DNA of 64,000 bases, taken from NCBI GenBank assembly GCA_035315345.1, contig DATFYA010000095.1, forward strand, positions 8,449 to 72,448. The letters are read 5' to 3'. This document shows, piece after piece, positions 743-44,409 of this stretch. Position numbers and translations under genes: made by a program. This DNA comes from Candidatus Methylomirabilota bacterium (GTDB taxonomy: Bacteria > Methylomirabilota > Methylomirabilia > Rokubacteriales > CSP1-6). The notes below the pieces were generated by a model. The model was not told the origin of the DNA, searched no databases, and saw only the letters and a program-made list of their open reading frames with translations. Numbering within the stretch: the stretch's first letter is position 1; every line of letters starts with the position of its first letter.

Positions 743-1249
743 CTAGGCGAGCTGCTTGAGCATCGTGTCGGCGTCGCTCACCTCGAACTTGCCGGGCGCC
801 TCGACGTTGAGCGCCTTCACCACCCCGTCGTCCACCAGCATCGAGTACCGCTGGGAGCGTACCCCCATGCCGCGGGCGGTGAGATCCATCTCGAGGCCCA
901 TCGCCTTGGTGAGCGCGGCGCTGCCGTCGGCCATCATGCGCACCTTGCCGCCGCTCTTCTGGTCCTTGGCCCACGCGCCCATGACGAAGGCGTCGTTGAC
1001 CGACACGCACCAGACCTCGTCGATGCCCTTGCCTCGGAGCTTGTCGATGTTGGTGACGTAGCTCGGCACGTGCTTGGCGGAGCAGGTGGGCGTGAAGGCC
1101 CCGGGCAGCCCGAACACCACGATCTTCTTGCCCTTGGTCAGATCCGACACCTGGAACGCGTTGGGGCCAACGGTGCAGCCCGGGGTCTCCTGCTCGATGA
1201 ACTCCGTGAGCGTGCCATCCGGCACGCGGTCACCGATCTTGATCGGCAT
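743..1249 (-). CDS. peroxiredoxin, Prx5/AhpC-TSA type
   Basis: ORF 743..1396(-). I place the start at the internal Met (MPIKIGDRVPDG), which is preceded by GGAGGAG. The motif VFGLPGAFTPTCSAKHVP is typical of Prx5-like peroxiredoxins. The gene sits next to trxB. Confidence 0.85.
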   Translation of the reverse strand: MPIKIGDRVPDGTLTEFIEQETPGCTVGPNAFQVSDLTKGKKIVVFGLPGAFTPTCSAKHVPSYVTNIDKLRGKGIDEVWCVSVNDAFVMGAWAKDQKSGGKVRMMADGSAALTKAMGLEMDLTARGMGVRSQRYSMLVDDGVVKALNVEAPGKFEVSDADTMLKQLA

Positions 1250-1565
1250 GGGTCTCCTCCCTCGAAAGCGGTTGTGCGACGTGATGGTTGCCCGCCGGCG
1301 ATTCAGCGAGCGGCGGCTAGGGTACCACAGCGCGGGCCGACCGCGCCCGGCCGAGCGGGAGGCCCGAAGAGGCCACACGGGCGCCGCCGTCTTCACGGTC
1401 GAATCTTCTCGGTAGAGTTGACTCGGGAGCTCTCCTCAGCAGACTCGCCGCGTCGTCGATCGTGCGAATTTGACTTCCTTCATTCGGCCGAACGCGCGGC
1501 ATGTCACTTGCTGCCCCATATCCCCGGTCATCATCCGCAGTGGGATGACTCCCAGGAAGATGCCC

Positions 1566-2429
1566 ATGAGCCCAGAGATTGTCCTCGACGTTACCCCCGG
1601 CGCCGCCGCGGTACCGCTGTCGGTGTTGAAGATTCGCGACGACGCGGCCACCGAGGCGCCCGATCACCTGGCGGTCGAAGAGCCATTGGAGATCCGGCTG
1701 GGCGGGATGGCGTTCACGGTCACGATGCGCACCCCCGGGCACGACGAGGATCTGGTCGCCGGGCTCCTGCACGCCGAGGGCGTCATTCGCTCGGCCGAGA
1801 GCATCGACGTCATCGGCCACTACCGCGGTCCGGACGGGAAGCCCGACGCCGGGAACGTGATCAACGTGATCCTGAAGGCCGATCTCCACGTCGCGCGCGA
1901 GCGCCTCCGGCGCAGCCTGGTCTCGTCGTCGGCGTGCGGCGTGTGTGGGAAGGTCTCGATCGAGGCGATCCGCACCGCCACCGCTCCGCTGGTCTCGACG
2001 GCCACGGTGGCCCCCGCGCTGTTCCCCCGGATCGCCGCGACCCTGGCCGCCGCGCAGCCGACCTTCCAGCGCACCGGTGGCCTTCACGCGGCGGCGCTGT
2101 TCGATCTCGAGGGCCGGCTGCTGGTCCTGCGCGAGGACGTGGGGCGGCACAACGCGGTCGACAAGGTCGTGGGACACATGCTGCGGACCGGGGACTTCCC
2201 GCTCGCAGACTGCATCCTCATGGTGAGCGGCCGGGCGAGCTTCGAGATCATGCAGAAGGCGTGGAGCGCGCGTATCCCCGTCGTCGCCGCGGTCTCGGCG
2301 CCCTCCAGCATGGCGGTGCAGTTGGCCCAGGCCGCCGGCATGACCCTGGTCGGGTTCCTCCGGGGCGGTGGCTTCAACGTCTATGCGGGAGCTCATCGAG
2401 TGACGACCGCGCTGCTGGAGCCGGCGTGA
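1566..2429 (+). CDS. fdhD: formate dehydrogenase accessory sulfurtransferase FdhD (copy 1)
   Basis: ORF 1470..2429(+). FdhD hallmarks: SSSACGVCGK, REDVGRHNAVDKVVG, MVSGRASFEIMQKA. The start is uncertain; the ATG at 1566 has AGGAAG 6 nt upstream, and 1545 or 1560 are also possible. Confidence 0.85.
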   Translation: MSPEIVLDVTPGAAAVPLSVLKIRDDAATEAPDHLAVEEPLEIRLGGMAFTVTMRTPGHDEDLVAGLLHAEGVIRSAESIDVIGHYRGPDGKPDAGNVINVILKADLHVARERLRRSLVSSSACGVCGKVSIEAIRTATAPLVSTATVAPALFPRIAATLAAAQPTFQRTGGLHAAALFDLEGRLLVLREDVGRHNAVDKVVGHMLRTGDFPLADCILMVSGRASFEIMQKAWSARIPVVAAVSAPSSMAVQLAQAAGMTLVGFLRGGGFNVYAGAHRVTTALLEPA

Positions 2430-2482
2430 TGACGACGCCCGGCCGGTCGGGCGCGCCGGACGCGCGCAAGGAGACGTCATCC

Positions 2483-5400
2483 ATGTTGCAAGTCACCCGT
2501 CGTGATTTTCTCAAGGTCGGCGCCGCCTCTGCCGGGGCCGCCGTCGGCGTCACCACCCTCGGCTTCGACACCGCGGCCGCCGTCGAGGTCAAGCAGACGT
2601 TCCGCATCGCGGGGGCCAAGGTCGCCCACTCGCTCTGCCCCTACTGCGCGGTGGGATGCTCGATGCTCGCCTACACCCGGACGGACGGCGCGGGCAAGAC
2701 CCGGATCGTGCAGATCGAAGGCGATCCGGACAGCCCGGTCAACGAAGGCCGCCTCTGTCCGAAGGGGGCGACGGCCATGCAGCTGGCGGTGAGCAGCCGC
2801 CGGGTGGAGAAGCCGCGCTACCGGGCGCCCGGGACCGATCACTGGCAGGAGATCAGCTGGGACCAGATGCTGGACCGCATGGCCCAGCGGATCAAGGAGT
2901 CGCGCGACGCGACGTTCGTGACCCAGGACGCCAGCGGCAACATCGTCAACCGCTGCGAGGGCATCGCCTTCGCGGGCGGCGCCGCCTTCAGCAGCGAAGA
3001 GGGCTACTTCGCGACCAAGATCATGCGCAGCCTCGGGACGGTCTTCATAGAACAGCAGGCCCGAGTCTGACACGGCCCCACGGTCGTCAGTCTGGCGGCC
3101 ACATTCGGGCGGGGCGCGATGACGAACCACTGGCGGGACATCAAGAACACCGACGTCATCCTCATCAACGGCGCCAATCCGGCGGAGGCGCATCCGGTGG
3201 GCTTCCAGTGGTTCATGAAGGCCAAGCTCGACCCCAAGCGCGGGATCGGGCAGGGCGGCGGGGCCAAGATCATCCATGTCGACCCTCGGTTCACCCGGAC
3301 GTCCGCGGTGGCCGACATGCACGCTCGGATCCGCACCGGCACCGACGTCGCCTTCTTCGGCGGGCTCATCAGCTACGTGCTGGAGAACAACCTCATCCAC
3401 CACGAGTACGTGCGCAACTACACCAACGCCTCCTTCATCGTGAAGGACGGGTACGGCTTCAACGACGGACTCTTCAGCGGCTACGATCCGGCCAAGCGGA
3501 TCTACGATACGTCGACCTGGGCCTACGAGGGCGACACCGGGGCGGCGTCCGGGCGCATGAAGCAGGAGATCGGCGCCCACGCCCACGGGCCCGTCCAGCC
3601 CGGGCAAGGCCCGGGGGGGACCGAAGGCGGTAAGGCTCAGGGCGGGGCGGGCGAGGGCGAGAAGGTCGGGGCGGGCGTGACCATCGCCAAGCGAGACATG
3701 CAGCTCGAGCACCCGCGCTCGGTGTTCCAGCTGATGCGCAAGCACTACGCGCGCTACACCCCCGAGGTCGTGTCCTCGGTCACCGGCATTCCCGCTGATC
3801 AGTTCCTCGAGATCGCCAAGATCGTCGGGGAGTGCGGACGGCCCGACAAGGTCATGACGATCGTGTACGCGGTCGGCCTGACGCAGCACACCACCGGCGG
3901 CCAGCTGATCCGCAGCGCGGCGGTGCTGCAGCTGCTCCTGGGCAACATGGGACGGCCGGGCGGGGGCATGAACGCCGAGCGCGGCCACGCCAACATCCAG
4001 GGCAACACCGACCACGCCATCTCCTGGGAGATCCTGCCCGGGTATCTGCGCATTCCCGCGCCCGGTCAGAAGAACCTCAACGACTACGTCTCGCAGAGCG
4101 CCCCGAAGAAGTTCGACGCCAACTCCTGGAACTTTTTCGGGACCAACTACCGCAACTTCATGGTGAGCCTGCTCAAGACGTGGTACGGCGACCACACCAA
4201 GCCCGAGAATGAGTACGCGTTCGACTTCATCCCCAAGCCGGCCACCAACTCGTCGTGGATCACCATCTACGACCAGGCGCTCAAGAAGAAGATGCAGGGC
4301 GTGATCCTGTCCGGCATGACCGCCACCAGCATCGGCCCGGACTCCAACCAGGTCATGCAGGCCCTCGCCAACCTCAAGTGGCTGGTGGTCATGGACGCGC
4401 TGCCCACCACCAGCTCGGAGTTCTGGCGGCGGCCGGGCGTGGATCCCAAGTCGATCCAGACCGAGGTCTTCATGGTGCCGTGCACCCACTGGATCGAGAA
4501 GGACGGCTCCTTCGTGAACAGCGGCCGCTGGTCGCAGTGGAAGGAGCAGGTGATCCCGCCGGAGGGCGAGGCCCGGCACGACCACTGGGTGATGGCCGAG
4601 CTCTTCGATCGGGTGAAGAAGCTCTACCAGCAGCAGGGCGGGAAGTTCCCCGACCCGCTGATGGCGCTGACCCTGGCGTACAAGGACCCGCTCAAGCCGG
4701 AGCTGGAAGAGCTCGCCAAGGAGATCAACGGCTACGACCTGACCACCGGCCAGCGCCTGGACACCTTCAGCAAGCTGAAGGACGACGGCACGACCACCGC
4801 GGGCGACTGGATCTACACGGGCTCGTATCCCGAGGCGGGCAATCTCGCCGCGCGCCGCGCCGGCATCCAGGACCCGGCCAAGAACGACCCGACCGGCATG
4901 GGCTTCTACCCGGGCTGGGCCTGGAGCTGGCCGCTCAACCGGCGCGTCATGTACAACCGCGCCTCGGCCGACCTCGACGGCAAGCCCTGGGACCCGACGC
5001 GGCCGGGCATCGTCTGGGATCCTTCGCAGCACAAGTGGACCGGCGATATCCCCGACTATCCGGCCACGATGGAGCCGCGCAGCCCGAAGGCGTGGGGGCC
5101 GTTCATCATGAACGGCGAGGGCGTGGGCCGGCTCTTCTCGGCCTCGATGCTCGACGGGCCGTTCCCCGAGCACTACGAGCCGATGGAATCGCCGATCCAG
5201 AACCCGCTGCACCCGAGCCAGTCGGAGTCGCCGGTGGCCTATCTCTACGACAAGGCGGCCGGACGCGAGAGCCGCTTCGGCACCGCCGCGGACTACCCGT
5301 ACATCGCGACGAGCTACCGCCTGACCGAGCACGAGCACTTCATCACCCAGCACGTGCCGTATCTGACCCAGCTCCAGCCCTACCCCTTCGTGGAGGTGCC

Positions 5401-5701
5401 CGATGAGCTGGCCCGCGAAAAGGGCATCGTGAGCGGCGACCGGGTACGGGTGTCGTCCAAGCGCGGCCGGCTCGAGGTCGCGGCCATCGTCACGAAGCGC
5501 CTGGGCGCGCTGACGGTGGGCGGCAAGAAGGTCTACCACATCGGTATCCCGATCCACTGGGGCTTCGTGGGCATCGCGGCGGATCGCGATCCGACCAAGG
5601 GGGCCAACTGGCTCGCCAACGCGCTGACCCCCTTCGTGGGCGACGCCAACTCGCGGACGCCGGAGTTCAAGGCGTTCCTGGTGAACATTGAAAAGATCTG
5701 A
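2483..5701 (+). CDS. fdnG: formate dehydrogenase (FdnG/FdoG-type) catalytic alpha subunit with selenocysteine (TGA 3068-3070 read as Sec) and a Tat signal
   Basis: ORFs 731..3070 and 3119..5701 are in the same frame and separated only by TGA. Read-through gives IEQQARV-U-HGPTVVSLAATFGRGAMTNHWRDIKN, matching the E. coli FdnG Sec context (QARVUHGPTVASLAPTFGRGAMTNHW). The N-terminus MLQVTRRDFLKVGAASAGA is a twin-arginine signal, and CPYCAVGCS is a 4Fe-4S motif. The C-terminus is PEFKAFLVNIEKI. AAGGAG lies upstream of the ATG at 2483. Confidence 0.9.
3071..3115 (+). promoter_or_regulatory. candidate bacterial SECIS hairpin downstream of the fdnG UGA
   Basis: GGUCGUC-AGUCU-GGCGGCC (3082-3100) forms a 7-bp stem (two G-U pairs) with a 5-nt apical loop about 19-23 nt after the UGA. 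It resembles the E. coli fdhF apical loop AGGUCU. An outer GCCCC/GGGGC pairing is possible. This was hand-folded only. Confidence 0.55.
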
Positions 5702-6488
5702 TCGCCTCGAGAGCGGGCCCGTCGCCGCTCCGCCGTGGGAGACGCGGCGGCGACGGGCCAGCGCGCTGCGCGACCGCTGGCCTCACGCGGAGGAGATGCT
5801 GCGCCTCTATATCGCGCTGCTCGACGTGCACGAGCTCGCCGCGCGCGCCGCGCTGACCGACCGGCCCGCACCCGACGGCCTGGCGGGCTACGTGGCCGAC
5901 CGGGTGATGCCGGCGGTCGTGGCCGCGACGGTGGCGGCGGGGCCGCCCGCGCTCGCTGGCGCGGTGCGGGGCGATCCTGGCCCGCGCGCCGCGGCGGTGG
6001 CCGCCTGGCTTGCCGGCGAGCGGCAGCCCGCGGTGGCGGAATACCTGGCGCGCGCCGCGAGCGCGCCGGTGCTGGAGAGCCTGGGCGACGCCGGGGCCCT
6101 GCCGCGTCCACGCCGGGAGGGGGGCTGCCCGCGCTGCGGCGGGCCACCGCAGCTGTCCTACCTGGCCGAGTCGGGCGAGCTTCTTCTCACCGCGCCGCGG
6201 CAGCTGATGTGCGCGCGTTGCGGCGGCTTCTGGGTCCACGAGCGTCTGAGCTGCGCGGGCTGCGGCGAGCGATCGTCCGCGGCGCGGTCGATCTTCTCCG
6301 ACGACGAGCGTCTGCCCGCCCTGTCGATCGAGGCCTGCGAGCGCTGCCGGCGCTACCTGATCATGGTCGATGGCCGGAAGGACCCCGGCGCGGTGCCGGT
6401 CGTGGACGAGTTGGCCGCGCTGCCGCTGGACCTGTACGCGCGCGAGCGCGGCTTCACCAAGATCGCGCCGAACCTGATGGGCATATAG
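5688..6488 (+). CDS. fdhE: formate dehydrogenase accessory protein FdhE
   Basis: ORF 5688..6488(+). It has four Cys pairs in the FdhE pattern: CPRCGG, CARCGG, CAGCGE, CERCRRYL. A TTG start overlaps the fdnG 3' end by 14 nt, and I found no alternative ATG upstream of the conserved N-terminal region. Confidence 0.75.
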   Translation: MKRSDRLESGPVAAPPWETRRRRASALRDRWPHAEEMLRLYIALLDVHELAARAALTDRPAPDGLAGYVADRVMPAVVAATVAAGPPALAGAVRGDPGPRAAAVAAWLAGERQPAVAEYLARAASAPVLESLGDAGALPRPRREGGCPRCGGPPQLSYLAESGELLLTAPRQLMCARCGGFWVHERLSCAGCGERSSAARSIFSDDERLPALSIEACERCRRYLIMVDGRKDPGAVPVVDELAALPLDLYARERGFTKIAPNLMGI

Positions 6489-6498
6489 GAGAGCAGAG

Positions 6499-7263
6499 AT
6501 GGCACGCACGGTCGGCTTCTTCACGGACACCACCCTCTGTATCGGCTGCAAGGCGTGCGAGGTGGCCTGCAAGGAGTGGAACCAGCTGCCGGGCCATCCG
6601 GCCACGTTCATGGACGGGTTCGACAACACCGGCCAGCTCGACGAGCAGAACTGGCGCCACGTGCAGTTCCTCGAGCGCGAGACGCCGAATGGCGGAGTGG
6701 CCTGGAGCATGATGAGCGACGTCTGCAAGCACTGCGCGCAGGCCAGCTGCATGGAGGTGTGTCCGACCCACGCGATCATCCGGACCGAGTTCGATACCGT
6801 GTTCATCCAGTCCGAGATCTGCAACGGCTGCCGCGACTGCATCGCGGCCTGCCCCTACCACGTCATCGGGTACAACGCGGACACCGGCCTGGCCCAGAAG
6901 TGCACGTTCTGCTACGGCCGGCTCCAGAACAACCTGGTTCCGGCCTGCGCCAAGGCGTGTCCCACCGAGTCGATCAAGTTCGGCGACCTGAGCGAGATGC
7001 GGCAGGTCGCGCGGGCCCGGCTCGAGCGCCTGCACGCCCAGGGCGTGTCGAACGCGCAGCTGTACGGCGAGACCGAATACGGCGGCCTGCACGCGCTGTT
7101 CCTGCTGACCGACAAGCCCGAGGCGTACCAGCTCCCGAACGCGGCCAACGCGGTGCTGCCGAGTCGCAACAACCTGAAGGGCTACCTGGGCTCGCTGGTG
7201 ACCGGCCTCGTCGCGGTGGTGGGAGCGGTCATCGCCTTCCGCCAACGCGGCCGGGAGGTGTAG
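6499..7263 (+). CDS. fdnH: formate dehydrogenase iron-sulfur beta subunit (4x4Fe-4S ferredoxin) with C-terminal TM helix
   Basis: ORF 6499..7263(+). Motifs: CIGCKACEVACKEWN, CKHCAQASCMEVCP, CNGCRDCIAACP, CTFCYGR...CAKACP. The hydrophobic tail is LGSLVTGLVAVVGAVIAF. AGGAGAG lies upstream. Confidence 0.85.
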   Translation: MARTVGFFTDTTLCIGCKACEVACKEWNQLPGHPATFMDGFDNTGQLDEQNWRHVQFLERETPNGGVAWSMMSDVCKHCAQASCMEVCPTHAIIRTEFDTVFIQSEICNGCRDCIAACPYHVIGYNADTGLAQKCTFCYGRLQNNLVPACAKACPTESIKFGDLSEMRQVARARLERLHAQGVSNAQLYGETEYGGLHALFLLTDKPEAYQLPNAANAVLPSRNNLKGYLGSLVTGLVAVVGAVIAFRQRGREV

Positions 7264-8964: not shown

Positions 8965-9825
8965 ATGACTCTCGAGCCCGAGATCCGCGCTCCGAACGGC
9001 GCCGCGGCGGTCAAGCACCCCATCGTCCGCGTGCGCGAGGACGACATCGCGCGTGCCGACGATCACGTGGCCGTCGAGGAGCCGCTCGAGATCCGTCTGG
9101 GCGGCCACAGCCTTGCCGTCACCATGCGTACGCCGGGCGACGACGAGGAGCTCGTCGCCGGCTTCCTTCATTCCGAGCGCGTCATCCGGAGCGCGGAGGA
9201 CCTCGACGTCCTGGCGCCCTATCGTGCCGACGGCGAGCCCAATGCCGGCAACGTGATCAACGTGCTGCTCAAGGGCAACATCGAGGCGGCCCGCGAGCGG
9301 CTGCGGCGCAACTTCGTGACCGCGTCCTCGTGCGGGCTGTGCGGGAAGGTCACGATCGAGGCCATCCAGGCCGATCTGCCCCCCGTCACCGCCGACCTCC
9401 GGCTCCCGGCGGCGATCTTCTCCGTCCTGGAGCGCGCCATGGGCCGGGCGCAGGCAACCTTCGAGCGCACCGGCGGCTTGCACGCCGCCGGGCTGTTCGA
9501 CGCCGACGGCCGGCTGCTCGTGCTGCGAGAAGACATCGGCCGGCACAACGCGGTCGACAAGGTCGTCGGGCACATGCTGCTGGCCCGCCGGCTGCCGCTC
9601 GACCGGCACCTCCTGATGGTGAGCGGGCGCGCCAGCTTCGAGATCATGCAGAAGGCGCTGACCGCGCGCATCCCGGTGGTGGCCGCGGTATCGGCGCCGT
9701 CCAGCATGGCGGTGGAGATGGCGATCGCCGCCGACATGACCCTGGTCGGCTTCGTCCGGGGCGGCGGCTTCAACGTCTACGCGGGCGCCGGCCGCATCGC
9801 GCTGGAGCGCGTTCTCGGCGCGTGA
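8965..9825 (+). CDS. fdhD: formate dehydrogenase accessory sulfurtransferase FdhD (copy 2)
   Basis: ORF 8965..9825(+). It aligns along its full length with copy 1: ASSCGLCGK, REDIGRHNAVDKVVG, MVSGRASFEIMQKA, GFVRGGGFNVYAG. An AT-rich TGATATATATAGG lies just upstream. Confidence 0.85.
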   Translation: MTLEPEIRAPNGAAAVKHPIVRVREDDIARADDHVAVEEPLEIRLGGHSLAVTMRTPGDDEELVAGFLHSERVIRSAEDLDVLAPYRADGEPNAGNVINVLLKGNIEAARERLRRNFVTASSCGLCGKVTIEAIQADLPPVTADLRLPAAIFSVLERAMGRAQATFERTGGLHAAGLFDADGRLLVLREDIGRHNAVDKVVGHMLLARRLPLDRHLLMVSGRASFEIMQKALTARIPVVAAVSAPSSMAVEMAIAADMTLVGFVRGGGFNVYAGAGRIALERVLGA

Positions 9826-10130
9826 GGGCCGAGCCTCGCCGCCGCTCCGGCCGACCCCGGCGGATCGAGATCTGTGGTTCACCCGCCACGAGGGCCGCTA
9901 CTACCTGGTGGCCGAGCACGGCCGGCGCCCGGTGGGTGCAGAACATCCTGGCCGATCCGGTGGTGCGGGTGCGCGTCGGCGCCCGTCGCTTCCAGGGCCG
10001 GGCGCGGGTGGTCGAGGGCGGCGGCGATTCCGGGCTGGTCCGGACCGTGCGACGGCGGTCCGAGGCCAAGTACGGCTGGGGCGCCGGGCTCGTGGTGGAG
10101 ATCGCCCCGCCCCGGCCGGCGCGCGCCTAG
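9822..10130 (+). pseudogene. remnant of a deazaflavin-dependent nitroreductase/quinone-reductase (DUF385-like) gene, 5'-truncated with two internal frame shifts
   Basis: The terminal frame reads SGRPRRIEI...WVQNILADPVVRVRVGARRFQGRARVV...KYGWGAGLVVEI. The expected middle segment LWFTRHEGRYYLVAEHGRR appears only in another frame. The shifts occur at about 9871-9874 (tgtg) and about 9927-9931. The usual N-terminal 30-40 aa are absent, and that region overlaps the fdhD copy 2 3' end. Confidence 0.45.
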
Positions 10131-12364
10131 GCCTGCGCGGTCACCCGGATCAACGCGCCGTCCGGCCGCGGCGCGGCGACCAGGCCGATCACGGCGGCGT
10201 CATCGCCGGCTTCGCGCAGGGCCCGGAGCAGCGCGTCGCACCGCTCGGCGGCCACGCCGAGCAGGAGGCCGCCCGAGGTCTGGGGATCGAACAGCAGGTC
10301 CAGCGCGGGCCGCCCGGCCGCCTCCGGCTCGACCCACATCGCGCGCCGGGCCGTCGCGTTCTCCGGGTGCGCGGTGCTGCGGATGCCGCGGCTCAGCAGC
10401 GAGACCGCACCCGGCAGCGCGCGGATCGCGTCGAGGTCGAGAACGGCCGCGGCCTTGCTCGCGCGGAGCATCTCGCCCAGATGCCCGGCGAGGCCGAAGC
10501 CGGTCACGTCGGTGGCGGCCGAGGGACGGAACGTACGAGCGGCACGGGCGGCGTGGGCGTTGGAGCGAAGCATCGAGGCATTCGCCGCCTCGACCCACTC
10601 GCCGCGCGCGAGCCCGCGCATGTCCGCCTGCAGCACGACGCCGGTTCCGAGCGGCTTGGTCAGGATCAGCCGATCCCCGGCGGCGAGTCCCCCGATGCGG
10701 AGGAGGGAGTCGGCCGCGCGCGCGAAGCCCCACACCGCAAAGCCGGCGACGAGCTCGGGGCCCGTGGTGGTGTGGCCGCCCACGAGCGTGACGCCGTCGG
10801 CATCGAGGCCGGCGCGGGCACCGGCCATCAGCTGGTAGAGCATCTCCTCCTGCGCCGCGGCCGTCTGACCGTCGGGCACGGTCACCTGGGCGAGCGCGAA
10901 GCGAGGCGCCACCCCCTTGGCCCAGAGATCGCTCACCGCGTTGACCGCGGCGACCCGGCCGACGAGATAGGGATCGTCGACGAACGCCCGGAAGCCGTCG
11001 ATGGTGGCCGCGACGATCTCGCCCCGCTCCGTCTCGACCGCCGCTGCGTCGTCGGGCTGGGCCAGTCCCAGGACGACGGCGGGATCGCTGGTGACGCCGA
11101 GGCGCTCCAGCACGCGGGCGAGCGGGGTCTCGCCGACCTTGGCCGCGCAGCCGCCGCAGAGCATGTCGCCCCCGGGCATGGGCGCGCGGGCGAAGTCGGC
11201 GGTCACGGCGTCGTCGGGGCCCAGCACCTGGAAGCGCCGCACGAAGCGCCGGTCGATCCAGTCCTTGAGGGCCCACACCGCCCGGCCCTCGAGCGTCAGG
11301 CCCCACTTCGTGCCGATCGCCGTCCCGTCGCCCAGGTTCAGCAGCGAGAGGAAATCGCGCTGGGGGCGGTAGGCGCGGAGCCGCCCGTCGCCGCGCGTCC
11401 GCGCCAGCAGGTTGTGCGCCAGGACCGGCCCTTCGCGGACGGCGTACACGCCGGCCTTCGCGAGAGCGGGCCCCGCCGTCCACGCGGCGCAGTCGCCGGC
11501 CGCGAAGACGTCGTCGCGGCTCACCGACTGCAGCGTCGGGCGAATCCGCGCGAATCCCCGATCGTCCGTCTCGATGCCGGAACCCGCGAAGAGCGGCAGC
11601 GCGGCGGCACCGGCGACCCATACGACGGCGTCGGCGGCCACCCGCTCGCCGCCGGCCAGGTACACCGCCTCGCCGTCGATCCGCGTGACCACCGCGCCGC
11701 AGCGGATCGTGATGGCGCGCCCGGCTGCCCCGCGCTCGACGCGGCGGGCCGCGCTCGCGGCGTAGCCGGGCAGCACGCGCGGGCCCGACTCGAGCAGCCG
11801 CACCTCGACGCGTGGGCCATCGGGGTGGCGCAGCCGCGCCGCCAGCGCGAAGGCGACCTCGACCCCGCCCGCGCCCGCCCCGACGACGGCCACGCGGAAG
11901 GGATCGCGGCTCCGCGCCGCGGCCAGCACGTCGTCGACGCGCCGGACGAAGCCTCCGATGGGGCGAGTGGGGATCGCGTGCTCGCGCACCCCGGGGACGT
12001 CGCGGCCGGCGACGGTCGAGCCGATGTCGAAGGACACCGTGTCGTAGGCAATCGGGGGACGGTCCCCCAGGAGGAGGCGACGCGCATCGGCGTCAACGCC
12101 GGTGGCCGCCGCGACGATGCATCGAGCGCCGGCGCGCCGCGCCAGCGGCCGCACGTCGATCTCGAGGTCTACGCTCGTGTACTGGCCGGCCACGAACCCG
12201 GGCACCATGCCGGAGTACACCGCGACCGGCCGATCGACCACCAGGGTGAGCCGGCAGCCCGCGACGGGTGCCATGGCCCAGCGCTCGAGGACCTGGATGT
12301 GGGCGTGGCCGCCGCCCACCAGCACGAGGTCGTGTCGGACGCTATCGGCGGACGGCGAGCGCAT
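10127..12364 (-). CDS. selD: fusion protein: N-terminal FAD/NAD(P) pyridine-nucleotide-disulfide oxidoreductase domain plus C-terminal selenide, water dikinase (Cys-type SelD)
   Basis: ORF 10127..12364(-), 745 aa. The N-terminal part has LVLVGGGHAHIQV and VAVVGAGAGGVEVA Rossmann motifs. The C-terminal part has the SelD motif MLCGGCAAKVG (Cys, not Sec), plus AIR-synthase-like DDAAV and GGHT motifs. Confidence 0.85.
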   Translation of the reverse strand: MRSPSADSVRHDLVLVGGGHAHIQVLERWAMAPVAGCRLTLVVDRPVAVYSGMVPGFVAGQYTSVDLEIDVRPLARRAGARCIVAAATGVDADARRLLLGDRPPIAYDTVSFDIGSTVAGRDVPGVREHAIPTRPIGGFVRRVDDVLAAARSRDPFRVAVVGAGAGGVEVAFALAARLRHPDGPRVEVRLLESGPRVLPGYAASAARRVERGAAGRAITIRCGAVVTRIDGEAVYLAGGERVAADAVVWVAGAAALPLFAGSGIETDDRGFARIRPTLQSVSRDDVFAAGDCAAWTAGPALAKAGVYAVREGPVLAHNLLARTRGDGRLRAYRPQRDFLSLLNLGDGTAIGTKWGLTLEGRAVWALKDWIDRRFVRRFQVLGPDDAVTADFARAPMPGGDMLCGGCAAKVGETPLARVLERLGVTSDPAVVLGLAQPDDAAAVETERGEIVAATIDGFRAFVDDPYLVGRVAAVNAVSDLWAKGVAPRFALAQVTVPDGQTAAAQEEMLYQLMAGARAGLDADGVTLVGGHTTTGPELVAGFAVWGFARAADSLLRIGGLAAGDRLILTKPLGTGVVLQADMRGLARGEWVEAANASMLRSNAHAARAARTFRPSAATDVTGFGLAGHLGEMLRASKAAAVLDLDAIRALPGAVSLLSRGIRSTAHPENATARRAMWVEPEAAGRPALDLLFDPQTSGGLLLGVAAERCDALLRALREAGDDAAVIGLVAAPRPDGALIRVTAQA

Positions 12365-19915: not shown

Positions 19916-19986
19916 GCGTAGCCTACCACCATCGGTTGACACCGTCAGGCGCGACTGGTACGGAAAGAGGCACGAGGTCCACGACG

Positions 19987-20724
19987 ATGCGAAGCTCGAT
20001 CCCTCGGCGCACGATTCGGCGATGGACGGCCGCGGCGGCCGCCCTCTCGCTCGCCCTCGGCCTCGGGGTCGGAGCGCGCGCCGTCGGCTTCGGGGGCGAG
20101 GCCGCGGTGCTGGTGCCGCCCCCCGCGGTCGACAATCCGCCGGTCGACAATGTATCGGGGGCCACTCAGGTCGCGGTCCTCGCGGGCGGGTGCTTCTGGG
20201 GCGTCCAGGGCGTCTATCAGCACGTGCGCGGGGTCCAGCAAGTGCTGTCCGGCTATGCCGGCGGCACGCGCGAGACGGCCGACTACGAGACGGTCAGCCG
20301 GGGCGCGAGCCGTCACGCCGAGTCGGTGGAGATTCGCTTCGATCCGAAGGAGGTCTCTTACGGCGAGATCCTCCAGATCTACTTCTCGGTGGTGCACGAT
20401 CCCACCCAGCTCGATCGCCAGGGGCCGGACGTCGGGCCGCAGTATCGGTCCAACATCTTCTATGCCGACGACACGCAGAAGCGCATCGCCCTGGCCTACA
20501 TCGCCCAGCTCGACCGCGCCAGGGTCTTCGGCCGGCGGATCGTCACGCGCGTGGATCCGCTCGGAGGATTCTATCCCGCGGAGGCGTACCACCAGGACTT
20601 CCTGATCCGCAATCCGACGTACCCCTACATCGTGGTCCACGACCTGCCGAAACTCGAGCACCTGAAGAAGACGTTCCCCGCCCGCTACCGCGAGCGGCCG
20701 ATCACCGCCGGGAAGTCCCGGTAG
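19987..20724 (+). CDS. msrA: peptide-methionine (S)-S-oxide reductase with N-terminal signal peptide
   Basis: Internal Met of ORF 19936..20724. MRSSIPRRTIRRWTAAAAALSLALGLGVGARA is a signal or Tat-like peptide. The catalytic motif is LAGGCFWGVQGVY, and GFYPAEAYHQDFL is also present. Confidence 0.85.
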   Translation: MRSSIPRRTIRRWTAAAAALSLALGLGVGARAVGFGGEAAVLVPPPAVDNPPVDNVSGATQVAVLAGGCFWGVQGVYQHVRGVQQVLSGYAGGTRETADYETVSRGASRHAESVEIRFDPKEVSYGEILQIYFSVVHDPTQLDRQGPDVGPQYRSNIFYADDTQKRIALAYIAQLDRARVFGRRIVTRVDPLGGFYPAEAYHQDFLIRNPTYPYIVVHDLPKLEHLKKTFPARYRERPITAGKSR

Positions 20725-32860: not shown

Positions 32861-33514
32861 ATGACGCTACGACTCGGTGATACCGCTCCCGACTTCCAGG
32901 CCGAGAGCACCATCGGCCCGATCCGCTTCCACGAGTGGGCCGGCGACAGCTGGACCGTCCTGTTCTCGCACCCGCGCGATTTCACCCCGGTGTGCACCAC
33001 CGAGCTGGGCTACGTCGCGCGGCTGGCGCCCGAGTTCGCCCGGCGCGGGGTGAAGGCGATCGGGCTCTCGATCGATCCGGTCGCCTCGCATCAGGGATGG
33101 CTGGCCGACATCAAGGAGACGCAAGGGCAGGCGGTGAACTTCCCGATCATCGCCGACCCCGATCGGAAGGTGGCGAACCTGTACGGCATGATCCATCCCG
33201 CTCACGACGAGGTCTACACGGTCCGCACCGTGTTCGTGATCGACCCGAAGAAGACGCTGCGCCTCTTCCTCACCTATCCCCAGACCACCGGGCGGAACTT
33301 CGACGAGATCGTCCGGGTGATCGACTCGCTGCAGCTCACCGACGCCCATCGGGTGGCGACGCCGGTGAACTGGAAGCCGGGCGAGGATGTGATCATCGTG
33401 CCCGCCGTCTCGGACGACGAGGCCCGGGGCAAGTTCCCGGGAGGCTGGCGCGCGCTCAAGCCGTATCTGCGGCTCACCCGCCAGCCCGGCGCGGGCGAGC
33501 CGACGACGCGGTGA
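32861..33514 (+). CDS. 1-Cys peroxiredoxin (Prx6 type)
   Basis: ORF 32861..33514(+). Motifs: LGDTAPDF, WTVLFSHPRDFTPVCTTELG, TVRTVFVIDP. AAGGAG lies upstream. Confidence 0.9.
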   Translation: MTLRLGDTAPDFQAESTIGPIRFHEWAGDSWTVLFSHPRDFTPVCTTELGYVARLAPEFARRGVKAIGLSIDPVASHQGWLADIKETQGQAVNFPIIADPDRKVANLYGMIHPAHDEVYTVRTVFVIDPKKTLRLFLTYPQTTGRNFDEIVRVIDSLQLTDAHRVATPVNWKPGEDVIIVPAVSDDEARGKFPGGWRALKPYLRLTRQPGAGEPTTR

Positions 33515-41019: not shown

Positions 41020-41585
41020 ACCTGCTCGCGGTCGTCGGCGCGGTCACGCCGCCCGGGCGGCTCGACGCGGCGGTGCGATTCGCGGCGGAGACCGCCGCCG
41101 CGAGGCCGGGCGTCACCGCGTCGGTGCTGAGCCTCGGGGAGCACCGCATCTCGTTCGCGGACGGGCGGCCCCTCGAGCGCTTCACCGATGACACCGCGCG
41201 CGTGGTCGGCGCGCTCGTCGCGGCCGACGCCGTGCTGCTGGCGAGCCCGGTCTATCGCGGCTCGCTCACCGGCGCGCTCAAGAACCTGCTCGACCTGACC
41301 CCGGTGGAGGCACTGCGCGCCAAGCCGGTGGGCATCGTCGCGATGGGAGCCACCGCGCATCACTACCTGGGAGTCGACTGGCACATGCGCGCGGTGCTCG
41401 CGTGGTTCGGCGCGCTGGTGGTGCCGACGAGCGTGTATCTCGAGTCGCGGCACTTCCGCGACGGCAAGCTGGGGGATTCGGCGAGCCGCGGCGCGCTCGC
41501 CGATCTGGTCGGCGCCCTCGTCGCGTTGGCGGCGGTCCCGCGGGATCAGGCGGGCCCGCCGCCGCTAGCCGCAGGACACGGCTAG
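41016..41585 (+). CDS. NADPH-dependent FMN reductase (SsuE/MsuE-like)
   Basis: GTGA overlap with the previous stop. Motifs: AVLLASPVYRGSLTGALKNLLDL and GIVAMGATAHH. Confidence 0.7.
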   Translation: MNLLAVVGAVTPPGRLDAAVRFAAETAAARPGVTASVLSLGEHRISFADGRPLERFTDDTARVVGALVAADAVLLASPVYRGSLTGALKNLLDLTPVEALRAKPVGIVAMGATAHHYLGVDWHMRAVLAWFGALVVPTSVYLESRHFRDGKLGDSASRGALADLVGALVALAAVPRDQAGPPPLAAGHG

Positions 41586-41604
41586 CGGTCAGCGGGTCAC
41601 GCGC

Positions 41605-42291
41605 CTAGCGCTGCCTGCGCAAACGCCACGCGAGGCCGGCAAGCCCCGAGCCGAGCAGGATCAGGGTGGCGGGCTCGGGAACGGCAGTGGGCGGTCCGAA
41701 CGGACCGTTCCCGCCGACCGTGAAGGCATAATAATTTTCGAACGTGTCGGTCCAGGATATCGAGCTGAACGTGCCGCTGAACTGAATCACGCCGTTGCCT
41801 TCGTTGCCCGAGACCACATTGCCCAACACCGTGATCGGGGCGCCGCCGAACTGGGTGTTGGGACCGCCAGCCTGAAATGTCGGTGTCGCATCGAACGTGA
41901 ACGACGCCGGGATGTTCGGAGCGCCGAGGCTCCAGATCGCGAAGACGGGATTCTGCACGGGCGACGCGAAGGTGATCGTGTTGGGTCCCGTGAAGGTTCC
42001 CTGTAGCTGGATCTCGTCACCCACCACGCTCGGCGAAGTCGTGACGGTGCCGCCGATGAATGAGGTGTCGGGCGACCAGCTCGTGCTGACCCCGTTGAGA
42101 ACACTGCCCCTGACTTCGCCCGTGTAGGACACACCCACACCGTTGAGCGACCCAGAGGCAGAGCCGGAGTTCGACAAACTGGCGGTGGCGCTTTCCCAAT
42201 CGGTCCAGATTGTGGCGGCTTGCGCGTCGACGACGGCGAGACCGAGCAGCATGCCCAGCGCGGATGCGATGAGGAGCGTTCGACGGATCAT
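41605..42291 (-). CDS. PEP-CTERM sorting-domain secreted protein
   Basis: Internal Met MIRRTLLIASALGMLLGLAVV, 5 nt after GGAGG. The C-terminus VPEPATLILLGSGLAGLAWRLRRQR shows the PEP motif, a TM helix and a basic tail. The gene is visibly less GC-rich than its flanks. Confidence 0.8.
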   Translation of the reverse strand: MIRRTLLIASALGMLLGLAVVDAQAATIWTDWESATASLSNSGSASGSLNGVGVSYTGEVRGSVLNGVSTSWSPDTSFIGGTVTTSPSVVGDEIQLQGTFTGPNTITFASPVQNPVFAIWSLGAPNIPASFTFDATPTFQAGGPNTQFGGAPITVLGNVVSGNEGNGVIQFSGTFSSISWTDTFENYYAFTVGGNGPFGPPTAVPEPATLILLGSGLAGLAWRLRRQR

Positions 42292-42382
42292 GGAATCCTC
42301 CAGTGGAGCTGACGGCTTCGAGACAAACAATCTACTGCGATCGTCCGAGGCGGACAAGGAATAGTTGTGCTTACGCGGCCGC

Positions 42383-42934
42383 TCAGCGAGGCGTCGCGAC
42401 GAGGGCGCGGATCAGGTCCCGCGCCGACGCGCTGCTCCAATCCTTGGCACCCACCATTCGACCGACCAGGCGCCCCTCGCGGTCCACAAGGTACGCAGTC
42501 GGCGGGCCCCACACTCCGTAAAGTTTTCCCGTGACGTCGCCCGAGGCGTCCAGCAGCACCGGCGCGGTATACCCGCGCTCCACCGCGGTGCGCTTCACCA
42601 GGTCGGCGCTCTCACGGAAGGAGATCAGCAGCACTTCCAGGCCCTGCGCCTTGAACTCCTGGTACAGCCGGTTGACGGAAGGTAACTCCTCCCGACAGTC
42701 CGGTCACCAGGTTGCCCAGAAAAAGAGCAGGAGCGCCTTTCCCTTCTGGTCGTTCAGGCTCACGGTGCGGCCGTCGAGGCCGGGCAGGGTGAAGGCTGGG
42801 GCGGGTTTGGGCGGCTGGTAGCTCTGCACGCCCATTTTTTCCCAGGCCGCCGGCGCGGTGGCGGATTGCGCCACCGCGGCCGCGGCCCAGAGCGCCACCG
42901 CGAGCAGGCTGGCCGCGGCGGAGTGGACGATCAT
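42383..42934 (-). CDS. TlpA/ResA-like thioredoxin-fold thiol-disulfide oxidoreductase with predicted selenocysteine (TGA at 42706-42704) in a UxxC redox motif; signal peptide
   Basis: ORFs 42704..42934(-) and 42383..42634(-) are in the same frame. Read-through gives KGKALLLFFWATW-U-PDC-REELPSVNRLYQEFKAQGLEVLLISF, so the TGA occupies the first Cys of the WCxxC motif. The N-terminal signal is MIVHSAAASLLAVALWAAAAVAQS. The ATG overlaps the upstream gene's TGA (TGATG). Confidence 0.7.
42676..42694 (-). promoter_or_regulatory. candidate SECIS hairpin for the TlpA-like UGA
   Basis: CGGGAGG-AGUUA-CCUUCCG (7 bp including one G-U, 5-nt loop), beginning 9 nt after the UGA. Hand-folded. Confidence 0.4.
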
Positions 42935-43473
42935 CAGACTTTCGCGTCCTTGAGCGCCTGCAGCACTTCCGCGGGATCCAGCAGGTCGAGCGGATTGGCC
43001 TCGACCTTGGTCCAGCGAACCACCCCGTTCTTGTCGATCACGAAATAGGCGCGCTTGGCGTACCGGAAGATCGGGCTCTTCTCGTCGGTGACCAGGGCGT
43101 CGTAGGCCGGCAGCATCGTGCGCCGGAAATCGGACAGCAACGTGTAGGAGACCTTGTTCTGCTTCTGCCAGGCTTCCAGGGTTGCGACATGATCGGCACT
43201 CACGCCCACGACCTGGGCGCCCGCGGCCTCGAACTGGGGCATGGCCCCCTCGAAGCCGAGCAATTCCTTGGTTCAGGTGCCGGTGAACGCCTGGATGAAG
43301 GTGAAGATGACGACGGGACCCTTGGCGGTCAGGTCAGACAGCTTGACCTGCTTGCCTCCGGGTGCCGCCAGGGTGAAGTCGGGCGCTTTCTGGCCGACTT
43401 CCAGGGCGGCGACCGGGACGACGAGGACGGCCAGCAGCAGGGCCGTGGCCAGGAACGGGACGGCTCGACGCAT
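42934..43473 (-). CDS. AhpC/TSA-family peroxiredoxin with predicted selenocysteine (TGA at 43275-43273) as peroxidatic residue; signal peptide
   Basis: ORFs 43273..43941(-) and 42934..43263(-) are in the same frame. Read-through gives GPVVIFTFIQAFTGT-U-TKELLGFEG, so the TGA sits at the peroxidatic Cys of the P/FxxxTxxC Prx motif. I place the start at MRRAVPFLATALLLAVLVVPVAALEVGQKAPDF, a signal peptide, with AAGGAGAG upstream. The protein has no other Cys. Confidence 0.7.
43225..43257 (-). promoter_or_regulatory. candidate SECIS hairpin for the peroxiredoxin UGA
   Basis: GGCUUCGA-GGGG-GCCAUG-CCCC-(AGU bulge)-UCGAGGCC, that is 8 bp plus 4 bp with a 6-nt loop, starting 15 nt after the UGA. Hand-folded. 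Confidence 0.45.
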
Positions 43474-43560
43474 TGCGCTCTCCTTTCCGCAGTGAGGGGT
43501 GACGCCCACACAACGACCGGGGTCCGCCCCAAGTTTCCGGGCCGCGGCATAATACCGTCC

Positions 43561-44409
43561 ATGCCCGATCTGCGCGCGGCCGACCTCACCGATGGTATCG
43601 CGCACGCCGGCATGGCGTGGACAATCCATCGCGAGCGGGTGCTGCTCGCCGGCTGGGGCCGGGCCATCCTGCTGCAGATCGCGCATCCGATGGTGGCGCA
43701 GGGCGTCGCCTACCACAGCGTGTTCACGACGGAGCCCTGGGGCTGGCTGAGGCGCCTCGATCGCACCCTGCGCTCCATGCTCGCGCTGACCTTCGGCTCC
43801 GACGCGCAGGCGGCGGCCGCGGCCGCGCGGATCAACGCCATCCACGACCGCGTGCACGGGCGCCTCGGCGAGGCCGCGGGCGGCAAGCCGGCCGGTGCCG
43901 GCTACGATGCGCACGATCCGGCCCTGCTCACCTGGGTGCACGCGACCCTGCTCGACTCGTTCCTGCTCGCGTACCGGCGCTTCGTGGCGCCGATCGATCG
44001 CCTGGAGGGCGACCGCTACTGCGCCGACGCCGCCGGGATCGAGCCGCTGCTCGGGATCCCGGCCGGCCGGCTGCCGCGCACCGAGGCCCAGCTGCAGGAA
44101 TACCTGGAGAGGACGCTCGCCTCGGGAGCGATCGAGGTCACCGAGACCGCCCGGCGGCTGTCGCGAGAGGTCCTGGCGCCGCCCGTACCCAGCGTGCTGC
44201 GGCCCGCGCTCCGGCTGGCCGCCCTGCCGGCGGTGGGGTTGTTGCCCCCGGCCATTCGAGCCGCGTACGGGCTGCCCTGGAGCCGGGGTCAGGCGCGCGC
44301 GCTGGACGTCCTGGCGGCCATCGCGCGCCGGACGCTGCCCCTGACTCCGGCCGCGCTGCGCTACTGGCCCGATGCCCGGCGCGCCGAGCGACGGCTCAGG
44401 CGGCGATGA
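43561..44409 (+). CDS. MpaB-family oxygenase (DUF2236)
   Basis: Internal ATG at 43561 of ORF 43189..44409. Motifs: LLAGWGRAILLQIAHPMVAQGV, INAIHDRVHG, LLTWVHATL. Confidence 0.7.
   Translation: MPDLRAADLTDGIAHAGMAWTIHRERVLLAGWGRAILLQIAHPMVAQGVAYHSVFTTEPWGWLRRLDRTLRSMLALTFGSDAQAAAAAARINAIHDRVHGRLGEAAGGKPAGAGYDAHDPALLTWVHATLLDSFLLAYRRFVAPIDRLEGDRYCADAAGIEPLLGIPAGRLPRTEAQLQEYLERTLASGAIEVTETARRLSREVLAPPVPSVLRPALRLAALPAVGLLPPAIRAAYGLPWSRGQARALDVLAAIARRTLPLTPAALRYWPDARRAERRLRRR

Follow-up and report, generated by a model that had tools for sequence, protein, structure and literature searches.

On the minus strand of a contig assigned to a Candidatus Methylomirabilota bacterium (NCBI GenBank assembly GCA_035315345.1, contig DATFYA010000095.1, positions 8,449 to 72,448), two adjacent genes, here called A and B, are each interrupted by an in-frame TGA at the codon where a redox-active cysteine would be expected. 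The whole 64,000-nucleotide stretch is referred to below as the window, and positions are counted from its first letter. The locus raises the question of whether these genes are broken or encode two selenoproteins and, if the latter, what the two proteins do together. An earlier reading of the sequence (the original prediction) had proposed a dedicated couple of an exported selenocysteine (Sec) peroxiredoxin and a Sec-containing TlpA-like reductase. From our comparative analyses, we consider it very likely that both UGAs encode Sec, and probable that the two genes form an operon in which an exported peroxiredoxin (Prx) with a single Sec, protein A, is recycled by a reductase with a U-x-x-C motif (U denoting Sec), protein B, in a peroxide relay of the cell envelope.

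Reading frames and conservation of the UGA codons

Translation of positions 42200-43700 gave two contiguous minus-strand frames, each with one TGA as its sole break. The list of open reading frames (ORFs) and its translations agree with this: the four fragments recorded there form two pairs, each lying in one frame and split solely by TGA, as had been noticed originally. The stop of A and the start of B overlap (Table 1). In a composition-based scan of the whole 64 kb, in-frame TGAs with coding-like flanks were found three times, namely in A, in B and in a formate dehydrogenase (FDH) gene.

Relatives of A were searched for in one genome per prokaryotic species, which yielded 394 stretches, and the best 80 of the 394 were taken. 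Nearly all of these 80 loci stem from metagenome-assembled genomes (MAGs) of Rokubacteria/Methylomirabilota, and protein identity on either side of the TGA codon is 60-94% (tblastn). The codon of A is TGA in 80/80 loci. A homologue of B lies directly 3' of A in 74 of the 80, with TGA at the first position of the CxxC motif in 74/74, and the stop of A is overlapped by an in-frame start (TGATG or ATGA/GTGA/TTGA) in 73 of these 74. Neither the placement of the two TGAs on redox cysteine codons nor the stop/start overlap, both of which the original prediction had emphasized, is thus a chance feature of one contig. When neighbouring genes were clustered across the 80 loci, no conserved partner gene emerged: the pair is flanked by differing, unrelated housekeeping genes, among them those for thymidylate kinase/holB, ABC transporters, methionine synthase-like proteins and histidine kinases. 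As the neighbourhood is otherwise unconserved, the A-B pair is a self-contained cassette.

Further support comes from homologues in which the residue is cysteine. Such Cys forms exist for both A (P0008, P0013, P0019, P0028, P0033, P0040, P0041, P0044, P0055) and B (P0121-P0123, P0126-P0133, P0135-P0138), at about 50-60% identity, and the U of either protein aligns with their Cys. In the DNA around Cys-form proteins, the same overlapping two-gene layout occurs with Cys-A and Sec-B (L082, L089) and with Sec-A and Cys-B (L085, L087, L088). One Cys-A locus (L084) is cut by the contig end, and the Cys-A of L091 is followed by a plain thioredoxin gene instead of B. Mixed Sec/Cys versions of one operon are a classical signature of functional Sec codons, and they imply that the partnership of A and B is older than the Sec state of either gene. 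The natural Sec/Sec, Cys/Sec and Sec/Cys operons also provide a comparative system for studying what Sec buys over Cys.

The TGAs could instead be nonsense codons of pseudogenes, assembly errors, or sense codons in a lineage that has reassigned UGA to Trp or Gly throughout. Gene callers do split both genes, and some proteins, mostly from Joint Genome Institute (JGI) metagenome calls, carry W or G at the Sec position (P0002-P0007, P0009-P0011, P0124, P0125). We nevertheless regard this explanation as extremely improbable, since the TGAs recur in every one of these independent assemblies, both flanks are under purifying selection, the hairpins downstream of them are conserved and covary (see below), and Cys is the alternative residue in orthologues. 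Pseudogenes and assembly errors are ruled out by the conservation of the TGAs and of both flanks in about 75 orthologous loci. Reassignment is ruled out because A also ends at an ordinary UGA stop, as the overlap shows, and B often does so too, which means that the code is standard. The calls with W or G run over that true TGA stop as well and are therefore artefacts of genetic code 4 or 25. Evidently, short contigs were called with these codes, which creates false 'full-length' proteins for selenoprotein genes.

Hairpins downstream of the UGA codons

The original prediction had placed a stem-loop 9-15 nucleotides after each UGA, and both elements, which are SECIS-like, are present and retained in orthologous loci with compensatory changes (Table 1). 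The core hairpin of B has a folding energy of -11.5 kcal/mol (z = -3.1) and was recovered by RNAalifold from 73 distinct sequences. Its pairs 15:29, 16:28 (GU 44 / AU 15 / GC 14) and 17:27 covary, and 87.7% of the cells are paired, against at most 58.7% with slid partners. The loop AGUUR is almost invariant; counted from the U of UGA, its G and U occupy +21 and +22. These positions lie near G23/U24 of Escherichia coli fdhF. At the codon level, codons 81-87 of B (REELPSV) form the gene-wide peak of synonymous codon identity (0.91 versus a mean of 0.59), and the hairpin uses TTR for Leu and CCT for Pro, which is unusual at 71% G+C. In the Cys-form B of L088 the same residues are encoded by CTG and CCG, and the hairpin is lost. 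It is lost in L085 too and kept in L087, and hence is missing from two of three Cys-B orthologues; its retention in L087 may reflect a recent switch from Sec to Cys.

The core hairpin of A has a folding energy of -18.5 kcal/mol (z = -2.1). With the structure specified by hand, 80.2% of the cells are paired, against at most 51.8% with slid partners, and 48 double changes were counted versus 21±3.3 in shuffled alignments, none of 500 shuffles reaching 48. Covariation is seen at pairs 18:52 (CG 48 / GC 16), 19:51 (GC 68 / AU 3) and 29:39 (CG 42 / GC 14). The folding energy of the 75 nucleotides after this codon of A averages -37.5 kcal/mol among Sec forms and is -19 to -28.5 kcal/mol in five of six Cys forms. 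A short tetraloop hairpin nearer to the UGA of A (CUCG-GCUU-CGAG) was rejected as it is not conserved among orthologues.

Several results count against our reading of these elements as Sec signals. RNAalifold did not return the hairpin of A from 74 sequences, and the G23/U24-type GU found in B and in the FDH gene is missing from its apical loop (CCMUG, about +32 to +36). Since this loop is farther from the UGA and carries no GU, the element of A is the less canonical of the two. Neither hairpin matched Rfam, where searches of the window at the gathering threshold and of the locus at E<=10 returned no SECIS and no other credible RNA family. The proposed folding check gave a divided answer: the core hairpins are significant, whereas the whole stretches of 60-72 nucleotides after the UGAs, evaluated as single sequences at 71% G+C, do not fold significantly better than shuffles. 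Together, the two hairpins, one E. coli-like in its spacing and one farther from the UGA, would represent paired signals for the same SelB.

Just 3' of the hairpin of A, at 43202-43220 on the minus strand, lies a stretch (GCGCCCAGGUCGUGGGCGU) whose nucleotides are nearly invariant in all Sec-form orthologues. It can form a 7-bp hairpin with the loop GGUCG and encodes a conserved AQVVGV motif in preferred codons, so that its near-invariance could be due to codon bias or to a second RNA element.

Selenium-related genes in the window

Both selenium-related genes that had been named in support of UGA decoding were located by tblastn, Pfam and translation. The selenophosphate synthetase SelD carries at its N-terminus a fused Ndh-like domain, a pyridine-nucleotide-disulfide oxidoreductase, and matches Pfam Pyr_redox_2, AIRS and AIRS_C; an Ndh-SelD fusion of this type has been mentioned before (PMC2398784). 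The FDH alpha subunit matches Pfam Molybdop_Fe4S4, Molybdopterin and Molydop_binding, and the hairpin after its UGA shares G23/U24 with that of E. coli fdhF, its loop being AGUCU. Sec decoding is expected in this phylum, as a Methylomirabilota MAG has been predicted to hold 63 selenoprotein genes (2026 review, PMC13188914). On the opposite side, ARAGORN found no tRNA gene, and hence no tRNA-Sec, in the 64-kb window, and neither selA nor selB was seen among the window ORFs scanned.

The FDH gene is part of a plus-strand cluster at 1470-7260 that encodes FdhD, the Sec-containing alpha subunit, an FdhE-like protein and a 4Fe-4S subunit, and a second FdhD-like gene (8965-9822) adjoins the SelD fusion. 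The window also holds redox-defence genes in Cys form: a member of the Redoxin family extended at its N-terminus by about 50 amino acids (746-1396, minus strand), a peroxiredoxin of the 1-Cys-Prx type (32861-33511, plus strand), and an MsrA (19936-20721, plus strand) that has about 80 extra N-terminal amino acids and may be exported.

Table 1. Coordinates of the A-B cassette, its RNA elements and the selenium-related genes of the window
Feature	Position	Strand	Details	Basis
Shine-Dalgarno-like AAGGAG	43480..43485	minus	6 nt 5' of the ATG of gene A	sequence
Gene A, predicted exported BCP/PrxQ-like peroxiredoxin	43473..42934	minus	179 codons including Sec-67; ATG at 43473; TGA stop 42936..42934	translation, Pfam, structures, orthologues
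Predicted signal peptide of A	43405..43473	minus	MRRAVPFLATALLLAVLVVPVAA, cut before LEVGQKAPDF	heuristic
UGA, predicted Sec-67 of A, peroxidatic position (TxxU)	43275..43273	minus	codon 67; FIQAFTGT-U-TKELLGFEG	
Hairpin of A	43258..43224	minus	two stems (lower ~9 bp, upper 4 bp) separated by an AG bulge; CCAUG in the apical loop; 14-15 nt after UGA	
Overlap of A stop and B start, TGATG	42932..42936	minus	A of the stop TGA shared with the ATG of B	
Gene B, predicted exported TlpA/ResA-like thiol:disulfide oxidoreductase	42934..42383	minus	183 codons including Sec-77; motif W-U-P-D-C; ATG at 42934; stop 42385..42383	
Predicted signal peptide or N-terminal anchor of B	42869..42934	minus	MIVHSAAASLLAVALWAAAAVA, cut before QS	heuristic
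UGA, predicted Sec-77 of B, first (nucleophilic) CxxC position	42706..42704	minus	codon 77; LLFFWATW-U-PDCREELP	
Hairpin of B	42673..42697 (core 42694..42676)	minus	UG-U-CGGGAGG / AGUUA / CCUUCCG-U-CA; core starts 9 nt after UGA	
Ndh-like/SelD fusion (selenophosphate synthetase)	10127..12364	minus	Cys form, GGCAAK	tblastn with E. coli SelD, 7.6e-44
FDH alpha subunit with Sec and a signal of the twin-arginine (Tat) type	2483..5701	plus	TGA 3068..3070; ARV-U-HGP	tblastn with FdhF

Fold and active site of protein A

Matches to solved BCP and ResA structures fix the folds of the two proteins. Translated with Cys at its TGA, A has a match to Pfam AhpC/TSA (PF00578) at 3.7e-32 over residues 26-154, which spans the TGA, and matches to the solved structures of archaeal BCPs, 2ywn and 2cx3, at about 1e-24. 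The U falls on the peroxidatic Cys of these structures (AFTQVCTKE), so that read-through restores the peroxidatic motif, as had been claimed. The mature protein has no Cys in 78 of 79 orthologues, which extends to the family the observation that A has no other Cys or resolving residue; with Sec as its only redox-active residue, A would be a '1-Sec' Prx.

Whether A is a peroxidase is less certain. The Pro of the PxxxTxxC motif, otherwise universal in Prx proteins, is missing: FIQAFTGTU is gapped opposite the Pro of FYPAAFTQVC in 2ywn, orthologues have conserved Ile at -7 and Gln at -6, and the Pro is absent from the Cys-form relatives as well. This counts against our interpretation, as the absence of the residue from A and all of its relatives means that peroxidase activity is not assured. 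A is also far below the cut-off of every NCBIfam peroxiredoxin model (37.5 bits versus 270 for PrxU). Both observations would fit a selenoenzyme with the Prx fold that acts on another oxidant or substrate, for example protein sulfenates or selenenates, substrates resembling methionine sulfoxide, or a selenium or chalcogen compound, and that is still reduced by B. We think this decidedly unlikely, given that the solved structures most similar to A belong to bona fide BCP peroxidases and that the remaining active site is conserved as in BCPs. Thr stands at -3 in 73 of 79 orthologues, the UTKE context is maintained, and AKRAYFVID aligns with AKRAVFVID of 2ywn and 2cx3, its catalytic Arg (R141) being invariant in the orthologue alignment. 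By analogy with the envelope pathway of Caulobacter (see below), a peroxide is favoured as the substrate of A, with confidence only a little better than even.

Fold and active site of protein B

B matches Pfam AhpC/TSA at 6.1e-28, again across the TGA, as well as Redoxin and Thioredoxin_8. Among solved structures it matches 3kcm from Geobacter (1e-29) and ResA. Its U aligns with the first Cys of the WCPPC/WCPHC motifs of these proteins (WATWCPPC and WGTWCPHC versus WATW-U-PDC), which agrees with the WCxxC-type motif that had been recognized upon read-through, and its GPPTAYLVD aligns with their cis-Pro loop, P(E/T)TF. Exactly one Cys, that of UxxC, is present in 70 of 71 orthologues. B scores below the NCBIfam cut-offs for ResA (96.8 versus 170 bits), TlpA (77.9 versus 230) and DsbE (56.1 versus 123), and is therefore a relative and not an equivalog of any of these named members; for the curated WAxxUGC family it reaches 57.6 bits at a cut-off of 300.

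Predicted export

All orthologues of A share a basic N-terminus, a hydrophobic core (maximum of 2.0-3.3 on the Kyte-Doolittle scale over 12 residues) and an AxA-type motif, which directly precedes the conserved LEVGQKAPDF at the start of the Prx domain. Those of B likewise all begin with a short basic stretch and a hydrophobic core, after which comes an Ala-rich motif of the AxA type. The signal peptides that had been proposed for both proteins are consistent with these conserved features, and export of both is likely. A point on the other side is that the prediction was made by eye and from hydrophobicity only.

A possible peroxide relay in the cell envelope

With no Cys in A and a single one, within UxxC, in B, a partner would be needed. 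This anatomy and the precedent of TlpA and PprX in Caulobacter suggest a peroxidase/reductase couple, and by that analogy it is rather likely that B is the redox partner of A. Each UGA would be decoded as Sec via its downstream hairpin, 9 nucleotides away in B and 14-15 in A. The selenolate of A would then reduce a peroxide and become a selenenic acid (A-SeOH), which the selenolate of B would attack to give an A-Se-Se-B intermediate. The Cys of B would resolve this intermediate, yielding reduced A and B with an internal selenenylsulfide, and B would finally be re-reduced by a putative membrane electron shuttle of the CcdA/DsbD/ScsB type. Ribosomes would reach B mainly after read-through of the UGA in A. 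As the start of B overlaps the stop of A, synthesis of B may be tied to A and to the supply of selenium.

Two observations weigh against such a relay. No gene for CcdA, DsbD or ScsB was found among the approximately 40 window ORFs scanned with Pfam or among the neighbours of the cassette in the 80 loci. In addition, six of the 80 loci are without B; one of them is at a contig edge, and the other five (L072, L074, L075, L077, L078) form a distinct Sec-A sub-clade with the motif FIAAFTPTU or FVAAFTNTU, in which A ends with TAA, TAG or TGA, no start overlaps this stop and no B gene adjoins.

That no donor gene was found near the cassette would also be compatible with a different use of the same pair. 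A could be driven by peroxide to oxidize B, which in turn would oxidize or isomerize thiols of the envelope, as PRDX4 does with protein disulfide isomerase (PDI). Alternatively, B could mainly reduce other targets, for instance in the assembly of cytochrome c or Cu centres as TlpA, ResA and CcmG do, with A as one client. The first chemical steps would be the same as in the reduction of peroxide, the closest named relatives of B (ResA, TlpA, StoA, DsbE) are maturation reductants, and a gene for cytochrome oxidase subunit I is present in the window. However, A and B overlap strictly one to one at all but one of the 74 loci, which argues for a dedicated pair and not for a general reductant, as does the lack of a further redox residue in A, and donor genes need not be linked, as Caulobacter TlpA was found by a genome-wide search (PMC3322552). 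Taken together, these two variants appear unlikely, and we prefer the relay in which B recycles A for the reduction of peroxide.

A more far-reaching form of this relay would be an all-selenium one, with an obligatory diselenide between A and B, the stop/start overlap acting as a selenium gate on the synthesis of B, and either residue toggling independently between Sec and Cys in evolution. As a whole, this combination is tentative and somewhat doubtful. If true, it would provide a natural case of two selenoenzymes that act on each other through a diselenide intermediate outside the cytoplasm.

Annotation and distribution of the cassette

Most close database homologues of the two proteins are stubs cut at the TGA, with 102-112 amino acids for A and 100-101 for B, and C-terminal fragments of 100-112 amino acids from the two families number in the hundreds. 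Gene A of the window is represented at NCBI by a 'redoxin domain-containing protein' of 109 amino acids. The expectation that ordinary annotation would miss such a pair or label it as pseudogenes is thereby borne out in the form of truncated records. In Rokubacteria/Methylomirabilota, a phylum widespread in soil and groundwater, an envelope redox pair is thus recorded as four fragments or as 'redoxin' and 'peroxiredoxin' stubs of 100-110 amino acids, and a corrected annotation would change the oxidative-stress equipment inferred for its uncultured members.

Some contigs with the cassette have been binned to MAGs of unrelated organisms, namely the archaeal Nitrosotalea/Nitrosocosmicus (L002, L048), Verrucomicrobiia (L004, L058) and Acidobacteriota (L015, L065), and three more (L010, L012, L014) are likewise in unrelated bins. 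Their cassette proteins are 71-85% identical to those of Rokubacteria. Mis-binning is the likely cause, horizontal transfer being the alternative. MFD04850.bin.2.156 contains two copies of the cassette, L020 and L024. Gene B of L020 has a one-nucleotide deletion in the hairpin (4708-4745; CCTCCATC versus CCTCCCATC) that leads to a frameshift, and the overlapping start in L024 does not share the frame of B; these are either decaying paralogues or indel errors of long reads.

Two loci hold additional B-like sequences. About 2 kb from the cassette of L028, on the opposite strand, lies a second TlpA-like gene (6783-7184, minus strand) with 41% identity to B and a TGA at the aligned CxxC position, which probably encodes another UxxC selenoprotein. 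On the 573-bp contig of P0134, the C-terminal part of one B-like gene is joined to the N-terminal part of another, up to its TGA; either two B genes stand in tandem or are fused here, or the assembly is chimeric. In the window itself, a gene for a PEP-CTERM-anchored secreted protein (41605-42291, minus strand) lies about 90 nucleotides 3' of the cassette; it is not conserved elsewhere. Positions 41500-43800 were scanned for promoters and terminators, with no hit.

Comparison with known systems

Comparative genomics had revealed both selenoprotein families by 2004-2008. As the original prediction had stated, they are listed in the literature as long-established predicted selenoprotein families of PF00578, namely Prx (TxxU) and 'Prx-like thiol:disulfide oxidoreductase' (UxxC) (PMC13188914, PMC2398784). 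The Prx family, studied experimentally as PrxU of Eubacterium acidaminophilum, shares with A the AhpC/TSA fold, Sec in T-x-x-U and the existence of Cys-form homologues. A differs from PrxU in belonging to the BCP/PrxQ-like branch, in its predicted signal peptide, in the absence of the active-site Pro and of any Cys, and in its coupling to a Sec reductase. Prx-like 1, or 'Prx-like thiol:disulfide oxidoreductase', first predicted in Geobacter, resembles B in its PF00578/Redoxin-type fold and U-x-x-C motif. The closest solved structure of B is the Cys-form Geobacter protein 3kcm, and the likeness is one of fold and UxxC. B further differs in invariably standing behind a Prx gene.

A and B score below the cut-off of every curated NCBIfam model, including PrxU, Prx-SUH, WAxxUGC, ResA and TlpA, and neither deep-Sep nor BSepDB mentions their families. 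Targeted literature searches returned no description of a coupled, exported Sec/Sec operon of a Prx and a TlpA-like protein, and on selenoproteins of Rokubacteria no paper beyond one line in the 2026 review (PMC13188914). A and B are each new to the known predicted selenoprotein families, and the overlapping cassette of two predicted exported Sec proteins is newly described here. The finding is solid and useful for annotation and for Sec biochemistry; to a specialist it will not be very surprising.

Multi-selenoprotein operons are known, namely grdA-grdB, prdB-prdC, frhA-frhD-hdrA, Prx/SelW-like, Prx-like/AhpD-like, SAO and Tso (PMC13188914). The A-B cassette resembles them in that neighbouring selenoprotein genes presumably serve one pathway, and a pair of Prx (TxxU) and TlpA-like (UxxC) proteins is not among the operons listed in PMC13188914 and PMC2398784. 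AhpE of Mycobacterium tuberculosis (1xvw, 5id2), to which A is homologous at about 1e-12 to 1e-13, is comparable in its one-cysteine mechanism without a resolving Cys. It differs from A in being a cytoplasmic Cys enzyme whose gene has no dedicated reductase gene beside it.

The closest characterized system is the ScsB -> TlpA -> PprX envelope pathway of Caulobacter crescentus, in which exported TlpA reduces the exported PrxQ-type PprX with electrons from ScsB (PMC3322552). Both systems combine a Prx of the PrxQ/BCP type with a TlpA-type protein, exported in the case of A and B by prediction only. Caulobacter has ScsB as the donor, and none was identified near the cassette or among the window ORFs scanned. 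TlpA and PprX use Cys, and PprX has a resolving Cys (PMC3322552), whereas A and B would use Sec and A has no resolving residue. Finally, Caulobacter TlpA was recognized in a genome-wide search for exported thioredoxin-like proteins and not by linkage to pprX or scsB (PMC3322552), while the genes of A and B overlap.

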